From: a virus
Length of the DNA: 61,307 nt
Strand: one strand, 5' to 3'
IMG/VR virus record: IMGVR_UViG_3300033475_000023
Coordinates: 1 to 61,307 of that record
The notes under the pieces were generated by a model. The model saw only the letters and a program-made list of their open reading frames with translations, had not been told where the DNA came from and did no database searches. The position numbers and the translations under genes are program-made. The stretch's first letter is position 1, and each line of letters starts with the position of its first letter. This document shows positions 1 through 61,307 of the stretch, piece by piece.

Positions 1-121
1 ATATAAAACTGTTCAATACGTGGCTACAAAAACAACCGTTATACACCATAACAGGCCAAATAATAGTTGACAGTTTATTAACTAAAAAGTTCAACTATAC
101 ACAATCGGTTAATCCACCACC
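1..121. repeat. Terminal direct repeat, identical to 61187-61307 (circular-assembly overlap or terminal redundancy; unit length 61186 bp)
   Basis: Read directly: 'atataaaactgttcaatacg...tcggttaatccaccacc' is present at both window ends. Confidence 0.95.
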
Positions 122-10325: not shown

Positions 10326-10464
10326 TAATTTTAAAGCCTTTAGAACGATTTTTAATATATCAACGGTTGTTTGTACAAAAACAAAATAATAATGTGTTAA
10401 AATTAAGAAACAATATTTTTAGAATTGCTTTTAATTGCTGAAAAAGCATTATACTTGTAACCAT

Positions 10465-10570
10465 TATTTAAGGTATAGTTTTTGTGAAGTAGTGAGCATA
10501 GAAACCATACAACTGGGGTCAATTTTAAAATTGCCGGGACGTAAACTCACTACACGTTTCCGGCTTTTTT
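10465..10570 (+). promoter_or_regulatory. Structured leader ending in a strong intrinsic terminator 6 nt before ATG 10577 (attenuator or ~100-nt sRNA candidate)
   Basis: Terminator stem 10533-10542 / 10554-10564 plus T6. 'gtagtgag' (10489-10496) is complementary to 'ctcactac' (10546-10553) in the terminator loop. Palindrome 'caattttaaaattg' at 10520-10533. Confidence 0.35.
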
Positions 10571-10576
10571 ATTTTA

Positions 10577-11302
10577 ATGGCAGATTTTATAATACGAGAA
10601 CGTTTTGAAAGTGGATTTGCACAAGTGCCAACTTCTGCATTAAGGGATAAAACACTTTCATTGAAAGCTAAGGGGCTATATGCCTATCTTTTTTCATTAC
10701 CGGAAGATTGGAAAGTTTATAAAACTGAAATAGTAAATAATTTTTCTGACGGAAAAGATAGTATGAATGCGGCTTTTAAGGAACTTGAAAACAATGGTTA
10801 TATAACAGTTAAAACCATACGAGATGAAGCATCTAAACAATTTAAAGGTTCTGTATTAACATTGCATATAAAGCCATTGCGGGAAACCCGCAGCGGGAAA
10901 CCCGTTTACGGGGAAGCCGTTAATGGCAAATCCGCACCTACTAATATTAATAATACAAATACTATACAGAATAATATTTCTTTATTTAACAATAAAGAAG
11001 ATCTTTTTTCTAAATTCATAAAAGAGTTTAATATAGCTACAGGGAAAAAATGCAAGGAAATAGAAAAGGTAAAAAGGCAATTTATACAAAGGCTTAAAAC
11101 ATATTCATTTGATGAAATAATGCAAGCGGTTAAAAACGCAGTAAAAGACGAGTTCCTTGCATCAAAGAATTTTAATGACCTTACGCCTGAATTTATAACC
11201 AGGGCGGATAAATTGGATCGCTATATTAACTACAAGCCAAATATTAAGAAAGAAGAACCCAAAATAACCATAACATCAAACAGAATAAATCACAGGAAAT
11301 GA
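10577..11302 (+). CDS. Replication initiator / replisome organiser (winged-helix, DnaD-like)
   Basis: 'FAQVPTSALRDKTLSLKAKGLYAYLFSLPEDWKVY...AFKELENNGYI' is typical of the phage replication-protein N-terminal domain; lies immediately upstream of dnaB. Confidence 0.5.
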   Translation: MADFIIRERFESGFAQVPTSALRDKTLSLKAKGLYAYLFSLPEDWKVYKTEIVNNFSDGKDSMNAAFKELENNGYITVKTIRDEASKQFKGSVLTLHIKPLRETRSGKPVYGEAVNGKSAPTNINNTNTIQNNISLFNNKEDLFSKFIKEFNIATGKKCKEIEKVKRQFIQRLKTYSFDEIMQAVKNAVKDEFLASKNFNDLTPEFITRADKLDRYINYKPNIKKEEPKITITSNRINHRK

Positions 11303-11457
11303 GCAAAAAGCAGATAATAGTTCCACCACAAGTAGGAGATATAATTCCAATTTGGGGGAACGCCATAAATAGAAGCCTTAAGGATTTTATAAAATGGTTT
11401 AATGAAAATTATAAAGTTGAGAAAATAGAAAAAGATGACGCACCGCAACCAAAATAA
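11299..11457 (+). CDS. Small hypothetical protein (52 aa, below the track cutoff)
   Basis: ATGA overlap with the upstream stop; fills the gap before dnaB. Confidence 0.35.
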   Translation: MSKKQIIVPPQVGDIIPIWGNAINRSLKDFIKWFNENYKVEKIEKDDAPQPK

Positions 11458-14926: not shown

Positions 14927-15048
14927 AAAATGAAATTAATAAAGGGGTAGTTCACACTGTAAAGGTGTGTTACAACTTTAGGATAGCGAGAAAGTACTAT
15001 CAACCCCTTTATTTAATATTTAAAAATAAAAAAACGAACGAACAGAAA

Positions 15049-15693
15049 ATGGAAGGGGTATTTAATTTATTTGAATTGCCAGTTGGCGAAACAGTAAAAA
15101 ATGGAGTTGCTACATTAGCAAGCTATAAAATAAGTGGTGAGCAAGCCATGATGGAAAACTTAAGATTGGTAAGAGATGGCGGTTGGTTATTTAGAGTTAC
15201 AGAAGGTGAATATATTAAGCTTATTGTAAATAACCAATTGATGATGTCAGATACACCAATGGAAAAAAACTCAAATCAAGAATTTGTTAGAAACGCAAAT
15301 GGTCATGTTTTTATAGCAGGTTTAGGTATAGGTTTAATATTAAACGCCTTAAGGGATAAGGTTAAAAGCGGCATAGTAAACAAAATAACAGTTATTGAAA
15401 AATACCAAGATGTTATAGATTTAATATCGCATAAGTTTAGTGATATGCCAATAGAATATATCTGTGATGATGTTTTAAATTATAAACCCAATAAAGACCA
15501 AAAATATGATACCATATATTTTGATATATGGCCCACAATAAGCACAGATAATTTACCGGAAATAAGCAAATTGCATAATAGGTTCAAAAACCATAAGAAT
15601 AAAAATAATCCATCTTGTTGGATGGGTTCATGGATGCAAAAGTATTTACAAAATAAAAAGCGAGAAGAAGCAAGGTATTCATATTACTGGTAA
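15049..15693 (+). CDS. Class I SAM-dependent methyltransferase / spermidine-synthase-like fold protein (the track starts it at GTG 14965)
   Basis: 'HVFIAGLGIGLILNAL' (motif I-like), 'ITVIEKYQDVIDL', 'YDTIYFDIW'. Confidence 0.45.
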   Translation: MEGVFNLFELPVGETVKNGVATLASYKISGEQAMMENLRLVRDGGWLFRVTEGEYIKLIVNNQLMMSDTPMEKNSNQEFVRNANGHVFIAGLGIGLILNALRDKVKSGIVNKITVIEKYQDVIDLISHKFSDMPIEYICDDVLNYKPNKDQKYDTIYFDIWPTISTDNLPEISKLHNRFKNHKNKNNPSCWMGSWMQKYLQNKKREEARYSYYW

Positions 15694-18330: not shown

Positions 18331-18594
18331 ATGGAACTTTTTGAACATGACTATGGGACGGCTTCTAAAGAAATAGACGAAACCGACATCACAACCACGT
18401 TATTGTACTTCTCAACAGAAGAACTAAAAGAATTTAAAAAGCTATCCAAAAAAGGCATTAAAGAACTATTTGGTGCTGATTATTTGGAAAAAGGCAACTT
18501 GTCGGATTTATTGTTACACCTTTTAAGGGAAAAATATGGAACACCAACAGCGCAAAGCGCCACAAGTGATAATAGCAAAGAAGAAACTAACTGA
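18331..18594 (+). CDS. Hypothetical acidic protein
   Basis: ORF track. Confidence 0.5.
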   Translation: MELFEHDYGTASKEIDETDITTTLLYFSTEELKEFKKLSKKGIKELFGADYLEKGNLSDLLLHLLREKYGTPTAQSATSDNSKEETN

Positions 18595-19427
18595 TGACGA
18601 AGCCGAAAAACTTTCCGGTAAGTTTTTAACAGATAAAGACTACGACCAGGTAATAAGGGAAGATACAGATTGTTACTCAACAGACGGCACGTTGTTGTTT
18701 AAGTTCAGGAAAAAGGTAATACCGATGCGTATTTTAAAATCAGGTTACGATGCTTTTAAAGGCAGCATAGAACTAACAGAGGGGCGTGGAATTGCTTCTG
18801 GTAGTTCACACAAGCGTATAAGAAAAGATGGCTCTACATCTAAAATAACAGTAGGCAACAAAGTACGTAGTGGCAATGTGGGTTATATGGACCCGAGCGC
18901 TATGATAAAATATTGCAGGCGTACAGGCTTTGCTAAAAAATATTTTGAAGAGTTTAAGCAAGGAATACCGTTTGTGGAGTTTGTAGATGGACTGTATAAA
19001 GAACTTTGCCCACAACACCACAAAATACAATCAAACATAGCTAACGGCACAAACATCAACTACATGATAGGCAACAGCAGTTTTACAACCGGTGACCGTA
19101 AACCAAAACTTTATGACAGCAGTTCACAAAGATAGCGGTGATTTGCCGCAAGGGTTTGGAAACCTTTGCATTTACAGAGAGGGCAAATACAAAGGTGGCT
19201 TTTTTTGCTTGCCACAATACAGAATAGCTATAGACCTAAAAAATAGGGATATGTTATTTGTAGATGTTCATAAATGGCATGGTAACACGCCGTTTAATGC
19301 AGTTAGTGAAGATGCTTTAAGAATAGCCTTTGTTATGTATTACCGCGAGTATATGTACAAATGTAAAAGCCCGGCTGAAGAATTATTAAACACTAAAGTA
19401 CAGGAAACTGGATATTGGAGATTATGA
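18536..19427 (+). CDS. 2OG/Fe(II) dioxygenase, TET/JBP-like. Split as assembled into 18536..19135 and 19092..19427 by a +1 frame change near 19089-19092
   Basis: HxD 'TAVHKDSGD', distal His 'VHKWHGNTP' and Arg 'RIAFVMYYR' lie in the second frame. The N-terminal half '...GRGIASGSSHKR...SGNVGYMD...SSFTT' lies in the first. Frame 2 is open only from 19071. Confidence 0.6.
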
Positions 19428-20512
19428 CATTAAGCAATGTAGAAAATATCAGCGACTTACACGTTGGTATGGACTTTAGGAAAGCAGAATACCGACGTGA
19501 AGTTTTTTTAAGGTTCTATGAGTTCCATACCAAGTATAAAGCGCACCCAGGCGCGGTATATTACACAATGCCATATTTGTTTGAAGCCTTTAATTTAAAC
19601 ACAGAACAAAAATATTGGCTTTGCTTTTTAAATGGTGTTTGCCAAAACATCATAACCACATGGGAGATTTTTAACAGGTTTCCAGAAGTACCAAAAGATA
19701 AAAACAGGTTGGATGAATTAAGTATTTTTTTTAGGGCAAACTATAAAAAATTTGGTTGGGATACAGATAGGAGATATGTTAAAAACCAATTTGAAAAGTG
19801 TGTTGAAAAATACATGGAATTATTAGCAGGCGGCACACAGGAAGAATACTTTGACGCATATTGCAATGAAAATGCCACGGTTAATTTTGACAACCTGTGG
19901 AATGTAGTCATGTCACAATTCTATTTATTTGGCAGATTAAGCACATTTAGTTATTTGGAGTATTTGAAAATAGCCGGGCTAAATATAGAATGCAGTACCC
20001 TATTTTTATTTGACCTTGATGGCAGCAAAAGCCATAGGAACGGCCTTTGTAAAGTATTGGGCCGTGACGACCTTGATTGGCATAGTAGCAACCCGGCATT
20101 TAATGGCTATGAAAAAACACATCTAAAGGCTCTTGAATACGAGGGTGAAATACTCCTGCAGGAAGCAAAAGCGCGCGGCATAGATGCAAGTTACTTTACG
20201 CTTGAAAGCACACTATGTTGTTATAAAAGTTGGTATCGCAAAAACAGGCGTTACCCTAACGTTTATAACGATATGTTTTATGAACGCATATTAAGGAATG
20301 AAAGGGAATGGGGACGCAAGAACTTTTTATTCCGTGAGATAAGGCAAAGCTGTTTACCACCACATTTATTGATAGAAGAAAATTACCGTGACCCAGGGTT
20401 GAAGCCCGAAAAGCAAAATTGGTTCAGGGACACCGGCGAAGTAATAATGATGGACAAAGAATGGCATTGTTTTAAAAACGGCTTTAACGATACATACTAT
20501 GGAATTATTTGA
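19424..20512 (+). CDS. aGPT-pyrophosphorylase / amino-acid:DNA transferase-like protein (ATG 19424; the track uses TTG 19415)
   Basis: All-helical; 'EYRREVFLRFYEFHTKYKAHPGAVYY' and 'GRLSTFSYLEYLKIAG...GSKSHRNGL' recalled as family-like (unverified). Sits between the dioxygenase, PLP enzyme and kinase. ATGA overlap. Confidence 0.45.
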   Translation: MTLSNVENISDLHVGMDFRKAEYRREVFLRFYEFHTKYKAHPGAVYYTMPYLFEAFNLNTEQKYWLCFLNGVCQNIITTWEIFNRFPEVPKDKNRLDELSIFFRANYKKFGWDTDRRYVKNQFEKCVEKYMELLAGGTQEEYFDAYCNENATVNFDNLWNVVMSQFYLFGRLSTFSYLEYLKIAGLNIECSTLFLFDLDGSKSHRNGLCKVLGRDDLDWHSSNPAFNGYEKTHLKALEYEGEILLQEAKARGIDASYFTLESTLCCYKSWYRKNRRYPNVYNDMFYERILRNEREWGRKNFLFREIRQSCLPPHLLIEENYRDPGLKPEKQNWFRDTGEVIMMDKEWHCFKNGFNDTYYGII

Positions 20513-21392
20513 ACTGACGCCGGTTGAAAAAATAGGGGATTTATACTTTAAGCGGGAAGATAAATTTCTACCAGATGGGCCACGCAGCATAAACGGAACT
20601 AAATTAAGGCAACTGATTTGGCTTGTAGGTCACCAAGTAGCAATAACCCCAAATATTAAAGGCATCATATACGGAACCGTGACAGGTAGCCCCCAACACG
20701 CTTATAGTGCATGGGTAGCAAACCATTATGGATTGGATTGCATAGGAGTTATATCAGCAATTGATATAGATAAGTATAAAAACCTTAAGTATGCAGAGCA
20801 GAACGGCGTTGAATTTATTTACAGTAAAGTAGGGTACGCAAAAACATTGGAAGCTAAAGCTTTTCAATTGCAAAAAGAACACTATCCGGATTATTACCTG
20901 ACTGAAACCAATATTGTAGTAAACAACAAAAGAAACAATCCGCAAATAGTAAGGCGTTTTCACAATGTTGGCGCTGTACAGGCTGCAAACATTCCAGACC
21001 ATATTGAAACGCTAATCATACCATGCGGGAGCGGCACAAGTACTATCAGTATCTTATACGGGCTTTATTTAAACAAGCCTAAAAATCTAAAAAAGATTGT
21101 ACTGATGGGCATCGGCAACGTTGGCAGTAATAATATAGGGTTTATTTGGAAGCGACTTGACTACATAGACCCGTTTATAAAAATGTATTTGCGTGAATTT
21201 GATTTTGTGCATTACAACCTAAACGGAACCGGGTACTGCAAGTATGAACAGCTATTTAAAGAACAATACAACGGGGTAGTTTTCCATCCACGCTATGAAG
21301 CTAAATGTTGGAGATATCTAAAAGAGTACCACCCGGAATTATTAAATGATAAAACACTTTTTTGGATAATAGGAAGCGATTATGAAGTCTAA
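20499..21392 (+). CDS. Fold-type II PLP-dependent enzyme (ACC deaminase / D-cysteine desulfhydrase-like)
   Basis: 'YFKREDKF...INGTKLRQL' (compare GGNKxRKL with the PLP lysine); Gly-rich loop 'IPCGSGTSTISILYG'. Confidence 0.7.
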   Translation: MELFELTPVEKIGDLYFKREDKFLPDGPRSINGTKLRQLIWLVGHQVAITPNIKGIIYGTVTGSPQHAYSAWVANHYGLDCIGVISAIDIDKYKNLKYAEQNGVEFIYSKVGYAKTLEAKAFQLQKEHYPDYYLTETNIVVNNKRNNPQIVRRFHNVGAVQAANIPDHIETLIIPCGSGTSTISILYGLYLNKPKNLKKIVLMGIGNVGSNNIGFIWKRLDYIDPFIKMYLREFDFVHYNLNGTGYCKYEQLFKEQYNGVVFHPRYEAKCWRYLKEYHPELLNDKTLFWIIGSDYEV

Positions 21393-21882
21393 CATTATAC
21401 TTATAATAGGCGCGCCAGGCACAGGAAAGACGTGGCTCATGCAGCAGCTTATTTCACATTATGGCATAAACAAAAACGTTTACAGCTATGCTACGGGCCA
21501 ATACAAGTACCTTAAACAAAATGGGGTCATGATTATAGGCGTATATGATGGTAGCACGTTCCAAGGTAGCGACAAGCTAAGTATGTCTATTATGCAAAGC
21601 AATAAACTGATAGAGCCGGTTTTTAAGACGGTGGATGCAGTATTTTGCGAGGGTGACAGGTTTACTAACAGTACGTTTATAAACACGTTCAACCCTACTA
21701 TCGTGCGGATAAAAGGAGATGGCGCGCAGGGCCGTGAGCAAAGAGGTAGTTCACAGTCAGAAAGACAAATAAAAAGCATAACAACGCGGGTAAACAATAT
21801 AACGGCTGATATTGAATTTGAAAATTCATTGGATTGCTTTAACTACCTGATATCACTACACCACGTTTATAATGACAACTGA
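21382..21882 (+). CDS. P-loop kinase (size and context of a 5-hydroxymethyl-pyrimidine DNA kinase)
   Basis: Walker A 'IIGAPGTGKTW' at the N-terminus; 166 aa; overlaps both neighbours. Confidence 0.55.
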   Translation: MKSNIILIIGAPGTGKTWLMQQLISHYGINKNVYSYATGQYKYLKQNGVMIIGVYDGSTFQGSDKLSMSIMQSNKLIEPVFKTVDAVFCEGDRFTNSTFINTFNPTIVRIKGDGAQGREQRGSSQSERQIKSITTRVNNITADIEFENSLDCFNYLISLHHVYNDN

Positions 21883-22573
21883 GCAAAAGCTTGCAACTAT
21901 TGACTTTGAAAATTCATGGTTAATAGGCTGTGAAAATTCACAGGTGATAACAAACGCATTACGGGCCAAAGGTGTAAACGCATATTCATGCGACCTGTTA
22001 CCAACTTCAGGCAACGATGAGTATCATTTACAATGTGACGTTTTGGAATTGCTGAACATGGGATGGTTTGCCGGTATATTCCATCCTGATTGCACATTCT
22101 TGACAGCAGCAAATACTTACATAAAGCGCGGCTGTAGTAAATATACACCCGAGCAAGCTATAGAGTTTAGGGAGCAAGCTATAGAGTTTAGGGAGCAAGC
22201 TATAGAGTTTTTTCTAAAATTTACAAATTCTAAAATCCAAAAATGGGCTATAGAAAACCCTATTGGAATAATGTCATCCATATATCGCAAGCCTGATCAA
22301 ATAATCCACCCGTGGCAATTTGGGCATGATGCAAGTAAAGCGACTTGCCTGTGGATAAAAAATTTTCCTTTGCTTAGGCCAACGCAGCACATAGCGCCGC
22401 GATTAGTAAACTATAAACCCAGGCGAGGCAATCAAACAGACAGCGGACAAAACAGATTAAGCCCGTCTGAGGACAGGTGGAAAGAAAGGGCTGAAACATA
22501 TCAGGGGATTGCTGATGCTATTGCAGCTCAATGGAGCGTTCCTTATATGGATAACCAATTAGCATTATTTTAA
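21872..22573 (+). CDS. Short DNA C5-cytosine methyltransferase-like protein carrying a 3x7-aa tandem repeat
   Basis: 'GCENSQVITNALRAKGVNAYSCDLLP' (motif I region), 'FHPDCTFLT' (PC motif IV-like), 'WAIENPIG' (motif VI ENV-like), 'PWQFGHDASKATCLW', C-terminal 'YQGIADAIAAQW'. Confidence 0.45.
   Translation: MTTEQKLATIDFENSWLIGCENSQVITNALRAKGVNAYSCDLLPTSGNDEYHLQCDVLELLNMGWFAGIFHPDCTFLTAANTYIKRGCSKYTPEQAIEFREQAIEFREQAIEFFLKFTNSKIQKWAIENPIGIMSSIYRKPDQIIHPWQFGHDASKATCLWIKNFPLLRPTQHIAPRLVNYKPRRGNQTDSGQNRLSPSEDRWKERAETYQGIADAIAAQWSVPYMDNQLALF
22151..22210 (+). repeat. Perfect 21-bp tandem repeat, 2.9 copies ('gagcaagctatagagtttagg'), in frame (EQAIEFR x3)
   Basis: Read directly at 22151-22171, 22172-22192 and 22193-22210. 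Confidence 0.95.
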
Positions 22574-22574
22574 A

Positions 22575-22772
22575 ATGAAAGGTTGGAGAAAAGTTTTATA
22601 TGCAGCAGATTGTGAATATGAGGATTGGGATGATGAGCATGAGTGCCCAATTTGCCCAAAACATAAAATAGATTATGCAGAATGTGATTGCCCCGGCCCA
22701 ACACAAGATGACTTATACTACTACAGGGTAATAAAAGTCGTACTGTACGCAAAAAAGAAACAAGATGAATAA
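22575..22772 (+). CDS. Small Cys-rich acidic protein
   Basis: 'CEYEDWDDEHECPICPKHKIDYAECDCPG'. Confidence 0.5.
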   Translation: MKGWRKVLYAADCEYEDWDDEHECPICPKHKIDYAECDCPGPTQDDLYYYRVIKVVLYAKKKQDE

Positions 22773-23235
22773 CTTATTTGACCTACCAGAATTAAGCAAA
22801 AGCGAAAAGCTTAAAAAATCACGAAAGGTAACAACAGACCTAACGCGTCAAGTTATTGATTGGCTTAATAACACCATGCAGTTTAAGGTACACAGGTCAA
22901 ATAACTTTCCATCACCACGTATAAGCCGTACAAAGGAGCAATTCAAATACCAAGACAGTAATGGTGATGAGCAGGTTTTTGAGTATGATAAGGTAGAGAT
23001 ATTCTTTAAAAAGAACAACATTAAAGAAAAGATATTGGATATAAGTGGCTTTAGAATAGGTGATGGGAAGCATATAGAAATAGAGGTGAAAACCGGCAAA
23101 GACGAACTGTCAGAAGGCCAAGTTAACCGCATTAAAGAAATTACAGCAGCAGGCGGGATAAGCTTTGTGTTTGATAGCATGGAGACATTTTTAATGCAGA
23201 TAAAACCGTACGTGGAAACCAAATACGCATTTTAA
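22765..23235 (+). CDS. VRR-NUC domain nuclease
   Basis: 'DISGFRIGDGKHIEIEVKTGKDELSEGQVNRIKEITAAGG' fits D...ExK...Q. Confidence 0.6.
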   Translation: MNNLFDLPELSKSEKLKKSRKVTTDLTRQVIDWLNNTMQFKVHRSNNFPSPRISRTKEQFKYQDSNGDEQVFEYDKVEIFFKKNNIKEKILDISGFRIGDGKHIEIEVKTGKDELSEGQVNRIKEITAAGGISFVFDSMETFLMQIKPYVETKYAF

Positions 23236-23636: not shown

Positions 23637-24125
23637 ATGGAACAAACAAACAAACTCGGATTAATACCATTAAGAAACTTTGGTATAGTTAACAAAGAAA
23701 GTCAAGTTTACAGATCAGCACAACCAATTTATAGCTATGAATATGAATGGTTGCGTAAAATGTTAAATATAGACTGCATTATAAACCTAAGAGCAGAAAG
23801 CAGGCATGATAATAACTTAGCACCAAAACACGGGATAGAAGTTGTGAATATTGACGTAGAAGATCACAAAGCACCAACAAAAGAACAAGCTGATTTATTC
23901 ATTAAAATATTACATGATAAATTAGATAAACGCGAAAGTGTGCTGATACATTGTGAACATGGGCATGGGCGCACTTCTACATTTTCAGTATTGGCAGCTA
24001 TAATAATGGGCCAAACATTAGATCAAGCCATTGCACAGGAAAATAATGACTTTCATTACCAATTTAGGCATCCGCAACAAATTGATTTTTTAAATAAATA
24101 TTGCGAAAAACTACAACCGGCATAA
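23637..24125 (+). CDS. Cys-based dual-specificity / tyrosine protein phosphatase
   Basis: Active-site loop 'VLIHCEHGHGRTSTF' (HCx5R[ST]). Confidence 0.75.
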   Translation: MEQTNKLGLIPLRNFGIVNKESQVYRSAQPIYSYEYEWLRKMLNIDCIINLRAESRHDNNLAPKHGIEVVNIDVEDHKAPTKEQADLFIKILHDKLDKRESVLIHCEHGHGRTSTFSVLAAIIMGQTLDQAIAQENNDFHYQFRHPQQIDFLNKYCEKLQPA

Positions 24126-61101: not shown

Positions 61102-61307
61102 ATGAAAAGGTTACTTACTCTCGCATTGCTGATATTCACAATCAGCAGCTTTGCGCAAACAGATACCACCAGGGTATCGACAATCAATATAAAACTGTTC
61201 AATACGTGGCTACAAAAACAACCGTTATACACCATAACAGGCCAAATAATAGTTGACAGTTTATTAACTAAAAAGTTCAACTATACACAATCGGTTAATC
61301 CACCACC
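61102..61307 (+). CDS. N-terminus (signal peptide plus linker) of the junction-spanning secreted glycoside hydrolase; continues at 122..1985
   Basis: 'MKRLLTLALLIFTISSFAQ' signal peptide; same frame as 228..1985 with no intervening stop. Confidence 0.7.
   Translation, partial: MKRLLTLALLIFTISSFAQTDTTRVSTINIKLFNTWLQKQPLYTITGQIIVDSLLTKKFNYTQSVNPP
61187..61307. repeat. Second copy of the terminal direct repeat (identical to 1-121)
   Basis: Same 121-nt string as the window start. Confidence 0.95.

Follow-up and report, generated by a model that had tools for sequence, protein, structure and literature searches.

A probable post-replicative thymidine-hypermodification cassette with a frameshifted Tet/JBP dioxygenase in a complete phage genome

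The IMG/VR virus record IMGVR_UViG_3300033475_000023, a stretch of 61,307 nucleotides analysed here over its whole length and called the window, carries between positions 18536 and 22573 a compact run of modification genes. They encode a Tet/JBP dioxygenase, an amino-acid:DNA transferase, a pyridoxal-phosphate (PLP) enzyme, a P-loop kinase and a protein with a predicted C5-cytosine-methyltransferase (C5-MT) fold, and they are preceded by a small open reading frame (ORF) named up87. The locus is probably a cassette for the post-replicative hypermodification of thymidine, of the kind known from phages that lack a dUMP hydroxymethylase, and its dioxygenase gene is split by a frameshift. The features are listed below with the evidence on which each one rests.

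18331..18594, + strand: up87, small ORF of 87 aa; conserved (tblastn) upstream of TET homologues
18536..19135, + strand: N-terminal fragment of the Tet/JBP (5mYOX) dioxygenase, 199 codons; weak Tet_JBP match
19089..19092, + strand: frameshift site, one extra base in CCGG; DNA alignments with relatives
19092..19427, + strand: C-terminal fragment of the Tet/JBP dioxygenase, 111 codons; Pfam Tet_JBP
19424..20512, + strand: amino-acid:DNA transferase (ADDT, formerly aGPT-Pplase2), 362 aa; Pfam PF18724
20499..21392, + strand: fold-type II PLP enzyme; homology to gp226 of phage ViI
21382..21882, + strand: P-loop kinase, 166 aa; Ploopntkinase3 (PF18751), marginal
21872..22573, + strand: compact protein with a predicted C5-cytosine-methyltransferase fold, 233 aa; phrog_757 and AlphaFold2 (AF2) model
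22151..22210, + strand: 21-nt tandem repeat in the methyltransferase-like (MT-like) gene; TRF

All genes of 18536..22573 lie on the + strand with overlapping ends, by 4 nt between the dioxygenase and transferase genes, 14 nt between the transferase and PLP genes, and 11 nt at both the PLP/kinase and the kinase/MT-like junctions. The transferase gene starts with the ATG at 19424, 4 nt ahead of the dioxygenase stop. A first-pass annotation, made from the sequence alone, had described five co-directional overlapping genes. The orientation and the overlaps are as it stated, but the first gene consists of two ORFs in different frames, and the frameshift in this seeding dioxygenase had been overlooked. 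All the motifs that it quoted are found in the translations (AVHKDSGD, HKWHGNTP, RIAFVMYYR, GRLSTFSYLEYLKIAG, GSKSHRNGL, INGTKLRQL, PCGSGTST, GAPGTGKTW, HPDC, ENPIG and AIAAQW). Its family guesses hold for all five proteins at the profile or fold level, the products of 18536..19427 and 19424..20512 falling into Tet_JBP and ADDT as it had guessed.

The segment 18536..19427 measures 892 nt, a length not divisible by 3, and does not form a single ORF. Its N-terminal fragment, for which the JGI gene call starts at 18566, ends at a premature TAG resulting from the frameshift and has no iron ligands. The C-terminal fragment, without the N-terminal half, holds these ligands (HKD), the distal histidine (HKWHGNT) and the arginine binding 2-oxoglutarate (RIAFVMYYR). 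With one base of CCGG at 19089-19092 taken out, a 296-aa protein is regained. Its alignment with gp26 of Nonlabens phage P12024L is gap-free (64% identity, E 7e-134), and it shares 84% of its residues with an intact homologue of 295 aa on contig L072 (L numbers designate the viral loci used for comparison). The inserted base lies inside the invariant FTT[V/I]TVN motif, 9 codons ahead of HxD, and appears as a single insertion in DNA alignments with eight relatives (L072, L070, L071, L001, L002, L027, L028 and L038). The best 120 of 920 dioxygenase homologues are all intact (266-291 aa), all with PF12851. An exact-pattern search with one or two bases at the site, even in shortened form, found neither allele in viral or metagenome contigs. 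A programmed +1 frameshift or transcriptional slippage was considered for this position and judged unlikely, because the local sequence, TTT ACA ACC GGT GAC, contains no recognisable slippery or stall motif. The lesion is either a real inactivating mutation or an error common to two assemblies.

The C-terminal fragment matches Pfam Tet_JBP (PF12851) over profile positions 79-164 of 164, with an E-value of 1.6e-13 and 50.7 bits (cut-off 34.9); the weak match of the N-terminal fragment covers positions 15-78. The profile of the dioxygenase family matches human TET2 (E 1e-8), and the HKD, HGNT and RIAFV motifs align with HRD, HATT and RISLV of TET2; the repaired protein also matches phrog_6059. 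An AF2 model was examined for the 79%-identical homologue P0121, not for the split window gene (pLDDT 68, pTM 0.69), and its top 26 PDB matches are TET2, CcTet, NgTET1 and CMD1 (E 2e-8 to 8e-6). The window dioxygenase is a member of the Tet/JBP family, with a TET-type fold as predicted from the model of this homologue. At the positions aligned to N1387 and H1904 of TET2, which we take to be contacts to 5-methylcytosine (5mC), it has Asp and Arg. These base-contact positions were tried as a predictor of thymine versus 5mC specificity and rejected, since the ParB-type enzymes of the compared loci, members of a class shown to act on T, have Asn and Leu there and the classes are not cleanly separated.

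Homologues of up87 (52-81% identical by tblastn) are located directly upstream of close TET homologues, in L001 (where it is P12024L gp25), L002, L006, L027-L030, L033, L034, L037 and L070-L072. No Pfam, PHROG or NCBIfam match was found for it. It invariably precedes the dioxygenases of this subclade, in P12024L and in 13 metagenomic loci. By analogy with ParB in the other dioxygenase subclass, up87 could be an accessory or regulatory partner of this subclade.

The transferase matches Pfam ADDT (PF18724) with an E-value of 7.5e-22 and 78.6 bits against a cut-off of 26.2, a family that also includes gp247 of Salmonella phage ViI and gp51 of phage M6. It is 29% identical to gp247, a serine:DNA transferase, over ~350 residues (E ~2e-29), and shows no BLAST-level similarity to M6 gp51. 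The PLP enzyme resembles the ViI decarboxylase gp226 over nearly its full length (32% identity, E 2.6e-54), and the proposed PLP-binding lysine is conserved, INGTKLRQ in the window being aligned to INGSKLRQ in gp226. Its similarity to M6 gp52 is weaker (E 5e-5). Pfam PALP gives 23.8 bits for the window enzyme, below the cut-off of 35, and 30.7 for gp226 itself. The nearest homologues of the PLP enzyme (44-49% identity) belong to ParB-type cassettes. Window positions ~20504..21378, corresponding to the PLP gene, have no counterpart in L072 and L070, and since the ADDT and kinase genes abut in these nearest relatives, the PLP gene represents a clean insertion.

The kinase has a Walker A motif (GAPGTGKT) and a marginal match to Pfam Ploopntkinase3 (PF18751; 28.3 bits against a cut-off of 27). 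Among the ViI and M6 kinases, ViI gp67 and M6 gp54 match HMUDK_HMUD1 and ViI gp243 matches HMUD2. Compared by hhalign, the profile of the window kinase family aligns with M6 gp54 (probability 91%, E 1e-6, 86 columns) and ViI gp67 (probability 87%, E 4e-6), in both cases apparently beyond the P-loop, and with ViI gp243 at a probability of 22%. By analogy with these enzymes it is presumed to be a nucleobase hydroxymethyl kinase. The start at 21382 is backed by an alignment of 16 homologues; the corresponding gene call of another JGI contig begins at window position 21439 and would remove Walker A. Of note for annotation, RefSeq labels the validated DNA kinases acting on 5-hydroxymethyldeoxyuridine (5-hmdU), ViI gp67 (L064 13204..13866) and M6 gp54 (L065 21686..22249), as ‘terminase small subunit’. 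In the Microbacterium phages Cinna, MementoMori and others (genes 2-3), the gene beside the kinase-like one carries the annotation ‘oxidoreductase’ or ‘queuine tRNA-ribosyltransferase’. Since the second of these names corresponds to phrog_6059, also matched by the repaired dioxygenase, these neighbours may be mislabelled Tet/JBP homologues.

The fifth protein matches phrog_757, ‘DNA methyltransferase’ (E 2.9e-50), and belongs to a family of at least 8000 homologues of ~200 aa. It has no match to Pfam DNA_methylase (PF00145) at E <= 1, and hhalign against a canonical C5-MT gives a probability of 1.9%. Its AF2 model (pLDDT 85) retrieves C5-MTs for all of the best 23 PDB matches (E <= 0.001), with DNMT3A first by Foldseek (E 2.9e-5, TM ~0.45), accompanied by DNMT3A/B, DNMT1 and DNMT2, and M.HhaI further down. 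P72 and C74 of motif IV and E128 and N129 of motif VI are invariant in 26 homologues, and motif I reads GCExSG with an invariant Glu, versus the canonical FxGxG. A C5-cytosine-methyltransferase fold is predicted on the basis of this model. The 21-nt repeat at 22151..22210 is perfect, with 2.9 copies (TRF 100% matches, score 120), and adds two in-frame EQAIEFR copies to the long helix between motifs IV and VI; as the homologues carry a single copy, this triplication would be a recent slippage event or an assembly artefact. The family is absent from all of the related loci, a set of 60 viral contigs that encode a relative of the window transferase, and the closest homologues (56-59% identity) stand alone in phage contexts without TET, ADDT or kinase genes. 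The MT-like gene had been counted in the cassette, and these observations do not bear out its status as a conserved member; it is most likely an independent orphan modification gene in a variable ‘methyltransferase slot’.

The window has an exact terminal overlap of 121 nt (1..121 = 61187..61307), which indicates a complete circular phage genome with a unique length of 61,186 bp. The ORFs scanned by Pfam or PHROGs were those of at least 150 aa on the + strand plus 66 smaller ones on the same strand. They include a DnaB helicase, a YqaJ exonuclease, a topoisomerase-like protein, terminase, portal, protease, tape measure, lysozyme and a DSP-type (dual-specificity) phosphatase. None of the scanned ORFs corresponds to a DNA polymerase, a thymidylate-synthase-like hydroxymethylase or ThyX, a dUTPase, a dCMP deaminase or ParB (ParB_N), and no radical-SAM isomerase is present in the window genome. 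The initial observation that polymerase, hydroxymethylase and nucleotide-pool enzymes are missing is thus extended to the scanned ORFs of a complete circular genome. Without a polymerase or thymidylate-synthase-like gene, the hydroxymethyl group would therefore have to arise on polymerised DNA, and the earlier deduction to this effect is sound given the absent nucleotide-pool route. Other scans of the window brought little: no matches for tRNA genes and Rfam families, promoter and terminator signals at background level only, and nothing added by NCBIfam and PADLOC. Direct sequence searches of the PDB with the MT-like protein, the PLP enzyme and the repaired dioxygenase gave chance matches only.

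The cluster is conserved among the related loci. In 50 of 57 related viral loci, the gene that comes next after ADDT is the kinase gene. Of 35 loci, 20 have a Tet_JBP homologue no more than 1.5 kb upstream, and a PLP enzyme is present in 17 of 35. The ADDT-kinase adjacency and the upstream dioxygenase counts mean that this clustering is more than chance. Two architectures are observed. The first one, up87-TET-(x)-ADDT-kinase, has dioxygenases 57-84% identical to that of the window; the second one is ParB-TET-PLP-ADDT-kinase, with a distant TET, ParB_N being found in L043. The nearest relative is L072 (TET 84%, ADDT 80% and kinase 78% identical), together with L070 (77%, 77% and 78%), both devoid of a PLP gene.

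The content of the methyltransferase slot varies among these relatives. In L072, a canonical C5-MT gene (10450..11358) follows the kinase immediately, with an 11-nt overlap with the kinase stop; its product lacks motif X (PF00145 positions 7-293 of 324). The up87-TET pair of L072 is itself preceded by a 36%-identical MT-like gene. An intact canonical C5-MT (PF00145, E 2.3e-58) is encoded two genes after the kinase in L003/L006. The canonical C5-MT gene of L071 (4144..5062), three genes after TET, is broken into at least four reading frames, and no C5-MT is found in the 16.8 kb of L070. In P12024L, an N6/N4 methyltransferase occupies the position next to the TET module. This protein, gp28, annotated ‘DNA methyltransferase’, was considered as a possible C5-MT partner and discarded, being an N6/N4 enzyme unrelated to the window MT-like protein. 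An IS605 OrfB/TnpB-like gene (Cas12f-like TNB domain) was also noticed at L072 3655..4731, ~4 kb upstream of the cassette.

Several neighbours of the window locus deserve a mention. A nuclease-like ORF of 156 aa (22765..23235; PHROG endonuclease/Holliday-junction resolvase) has 40-61% identical homologues in L070, L071 and L072, lying directly after the C5-MT gene in L071 and L072, and ~6 kb upstream of TET in L070. The phosphatase encoded at 23637..24125, 1 kb downstream of the cassette, is of the dual-specificity/PTP type (several Pfam PTP families, best E 1.4e-15); it was examined as a cassette member and rejected, as it has no counterpart near any related cassette. Upstream, 14965..15693 encodes a class-I SAM-methyltransferase-like protein (phrog_15480, E 5.8e-28, no Pfam match), and L070 has a 41%-identical homologue ~0.5 kb ahead of its up87 and dioxygenase genes.

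How would these enzymes act together? Thymine is rather likely to be the substrate base. In the pathway that we propose, the ParB-independent Tet/JBP dioxygenase would oxidise T in polymerised DNA to 5-hydroxymethyluracil (5hmU), an enzyme class shown in the literature. The P-loop kinase would then convert 5hmU to 5-phosphomethyl-dU, by analogy with the 5-hydroxymethyluridine DNA kinases (5-HMUDKs). The transferase would replace the phosphate by an amino acid, most likely serine attached through its side-chain oxygen, as ViI gp247 does, and the gp226-type PLP enzyme would decarboxylate this adduct to 5-(2-aminoethoxy)methyl-dU or a close analogue. The modified base would confer protection from host nucleases. 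The transferase step has been shown for gp247, gp51 and gp109, and PLP decarboxylation for gp226 and gp52. According to Lee 2021 (PMC8989533), gp247 is an experimentally established serine:DNA transferase, gp226 decarboxylates O-seryl-T, and the PLP step needs a free alpha-amine. Serine as the transferred nucleophile is suggested by the closeness of the window transferase to gp247 over M6 gp51, by the gp226-type partner and by the lack of a radical-SAM isomerase. Since the PLP step needs this free amine and no such isomerase is available here, O-linked serine and 5-(2-aminoethoxy)methyl-dU would be the most economical prediction.

The choice of thymine is consistent with what is known of related dioxygenases. 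ParB-independent phage 5mYOXs of ~290-300 aa are T-dioxygenases, with glycosyltransferases, cytosine/adenine methyltransferases and endonucleases as neighbours, and TET89, although it comes from a C5-MT-containing contig, prefers T (O'Toole 2026, PMC13229309). The window enzyme fits this subclass by its length of ~290 aa, by the lack of ParB and by its neighbours, namely a glycosyltransferase (in relatives), cytosine/adenine methyltransferases and the nuclease at 22765..23235. The complete genome of P12024L, with an intact TET, carries no C5-MT of either type, and neither do most related loci; the canonical C5-MTs beside the intact TETs of L071 and L072 are degenerate.

A number of points weigh against this reading. 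Tet/JBP clusters have been argued to make 5hmU in situ when no 5mC-forming gene lies nearby (Lee 2021, PMC8989533). This argument for T thus requires that there be no 5mC-forming neighbour, and a C5-MT-fold gene follows the kinase directly here. C5-MT or C5-MT-like genes occur near the cassette in the window, L072, L003/L006 and L071, oftener than the 6% reported overall. The kinase does not match HMUDK_HMUD1 (PF18748) or HMUD2 (PF18747), the families of the validated 5-hmdU DNA kinases, and no experimentally tested Ploopntkinase3 member was found in the literature. As regards the transferase, 29% identity to gp247 leaves the amino acid unfixed, and enzymes annotated as aGPT-Pplase2 use glycine, serine or putrescine (Lee 2021, PMC8989533). 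Finally, the dioxygenase gene calls are split in the same way on another JGI contig, 61,255 bp long, and an N-terminally truncated homologue of 209 aa is inactive (O'Toole 2026, PMC13229309), so that the pathway may not run in this phage.

The gene following the kinase raises the question of a cytosine route, in which the MT-like protein would write 5mC, the dioxygenase would oxidise it to 5-hydroxymethylcytosine (5hmC), and the kinase, transferase and PLP enzyme would build a cytosine adduct. The MT-like gene shares 11 nt with the end of the kinase gene, and its product combines the predicted C5-MT fold with a conserved catalytic Cys and an ENV-type Glu. L072 has its canonical C5-MT in the same position with the same overlap, as well as an MT-like gene upstream, and L003/L006 keep an intact one. 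Because C5-MT genes recur in this way beside the cassettes of the nearest relatives, L071 included, a 5mC route is possible. P-loop kinases are also present in clusters of active 5mC-dioxygenase clades, for which phosphorylation of 5hmC has been proposed (Burke 2021, PMC8256090), and 5mYOX97 oxidises both T and 5mC in vitro. Against this stand the absence of the MT-like family from the 60 related cassettes, the stand-alone position of its closest members, the intact TETs without any C5-MT in P12024L and L070, and the degenerate C5-MTs of L071 and L072. The window also lacks the context of the active clades A/B of Burke 2021 (PMC8256090), which is either HSP plus redoxin or a DNA polymerase. 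The Asp and Arg found at the presumed 5mC-contact positions of TET2 point in the same direction. On balance, we consider the cytosine route unlikely. Slightly less likely still is the specific product that it would yield, 5-(2-aminoethoxy)methylcytosine or another cytosine adduct derived from an amino acid, into which the kinase, the transferase of gp247 type and the PLP enzyme of gp226 type would convert 5hmC; no report of a cytosine amino-acid adduct was found in the literature. A dual-substrate system, in which the dioxygenase would oxidise T as well as 5mC and both pyrimidines would be decorated, could be imagined because TET89 and 5mYOX97 act on both bases and because a C5-MT-fold gene coexists here with a T-type tailoring set. 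The arguments against membership of the MT-like protein hold equally in this case, ADDT-family enzymes and these kinases are not known to accept 5hmC, and such a system appears improbable.

A different question is whether the cassette, whatever its substrate, is still alive. If the frameshift is real, no hydroxymethyl handle would be made and the downstream enzymes would be idle, a scenario that concerns the activity of the proposed thymidine pathway and not its identity, and is compatible with it. The split is common to two contigs, of 61,307 and 61,255 bp; it falls within an invariant motif, no slippery site suggests +1 recoding, the truncated homologue studied by O'Toole 2026 (PMC13229309) is inactive, and modification genes decay in relatives too, as seen for the C5-MTs of L071 and L072. 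On the other hand, the lesion is a single one, the four downstream genes are intact with their catalytic motifs kept, and the two contigs may come from the same or related samples, which leaves room for an error of assembly or sequencing common to both. Unless the inserted base is a sequencing error, the first step of the pathway is probably disabled in the present assembly; a dead or decaying cassette is a serious possibility, to which we give somewhat less than an even chance.

The thymidine-hypermodification cassette proposed here can be compared with several known systems. The closest in terms of chemistry is the 5-NeOmdU pathway of Salmonella phage ViI, which involves the 5-hmdU DNA kinases gp67/gp243, gp247 and gp226 (Lee 2018, Lee 2021). 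The homology of the window transferase to gp247 and of the window PLP enzyme to gp226 extends over the full length, and the order of events would be the same, with a kinase, then a transferase, then a decarboxylase acting on a hydroxymethyl pyrimidine in DNA. In ViI, 5-hmdU is provided by a dUMP hydroxymethylase of thymidylate-synthase type together with the phage's own DNA polymerase; the window has neither and carries a Tet/JBP dioxygenase instead. The kinases also differ (Ploopntkinase3 here, HMUDK_HMUD1 or HMUD2 in ViI), and the window genes form one compact operon, in contrast to the scattered genes of ViI.

The combination of a dioxygenase with such tailoring enzymes had initially been thought uncharacterised. 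This does not hold, since clusters with Tet/JBP, kinase and transferase genes are already described (PMC8989533, PMC8256090, PMC13229309, PMC11955845) and the wiring is not new. Thymidine-hypermodification clusters in which Tet/JBP replaces the dUMP hydroxymethylase have been presented (Lee 2021, PMC8989533, Fig. 2 sequences 22-25, section 21), and contigs with C5-MT and TET that also encode a P-loop kinase and aGPT-PPlase have been reported, with a proposal that 5hmC is phosphorylated (Burke 2021, PMC8256090). Phage T-dioxygenases have been shown experimentally and linked to kinases and amino-acid:DNA transferases, a 5mYOX-associated pathway being drawn (O'Toole 2026, PMC13229309), and a five-gene system of this type is annotated in Rhodococcus phage Tonitrus in a 2025 genome announcement (PMC11955845). 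No report was found of a full pathway reconstituted from the dioxygenase start.

The 60 related loci are of the same kind as the Tet/JBP-associated metavirome clusters (Lee 2021 Fig. 2 sequences 22-25, O'Toole clades C1/C2, Tonitrus), with which the window shares the association of Tet/JBP, kinase and transferase without a dUMP hydroxymethylase. It differs from them by the absence of ParB, found in more distant PLP-carrying relatives such as L043, by the unusual order TET-ADDT-PLP-kinase resulting from the inserted PLP gene, by its frameshifted dioxygenase and by the adjacent C5-MT-fold gene. The C5-MT/TET clusters of Burke 2021 resemble the window in having Tet/JBP within a few genes of a C5-MT-type gene, and their contigs 72, 80 and 86 carry a kinase and aGPT-PPlase. 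Their demonstrated products are, however, glycosylated 5hmC made by glycosyltransferases, and their active clades have canonical C5-MTs with HSP/redoxin or polymerase neighbours, whereas the window MT-like protein has no Pfam DNA_methylase match and an atypical motif I. The gp25-gp28 region of P12024L (Nonlabens/Persicivirga) shares the small upstream ORF and the 64%-identical dioxygenase in the same orientation, but continues with a TET-associated glycosyltransferase and then the N6/N4 methyltransferase, without transferase, kinase or PLP enzyme. A more remote parallel is provided by base J of trypanosomes, made by JBP1/2 and a glucosyltransferase. There too, a Tet/JBP enzyme oxidises thymine after replication, and decoration of the hydroxymethyl group follows; the system is eukaryotic, with glucosylation in place of phosphorylation and amino-acid transfer.

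This cassette opens no new class of system, its kind being already described in phages, and it is possibly inactive in the present genome. What is particular here is a ViI-type PLP module in a ParB-independent cassette, together with a frameshifted dioxygenase and a C5-MT-fold neighbour that bears a fresh 21-nt triplication. The PLP insertion, the variable methyltransferase slot, the decaying C5-MTs and the frameshifted TET offer material on module swapping and loss, and on possible action on cytosine. If active, the cassette would make a ViI-type aminoethoxymethyl-uracil wholly after replication from ordinary thymine, and would be a further natural example of an exchangeable oxidising front end and amino-acid tailoring back end.

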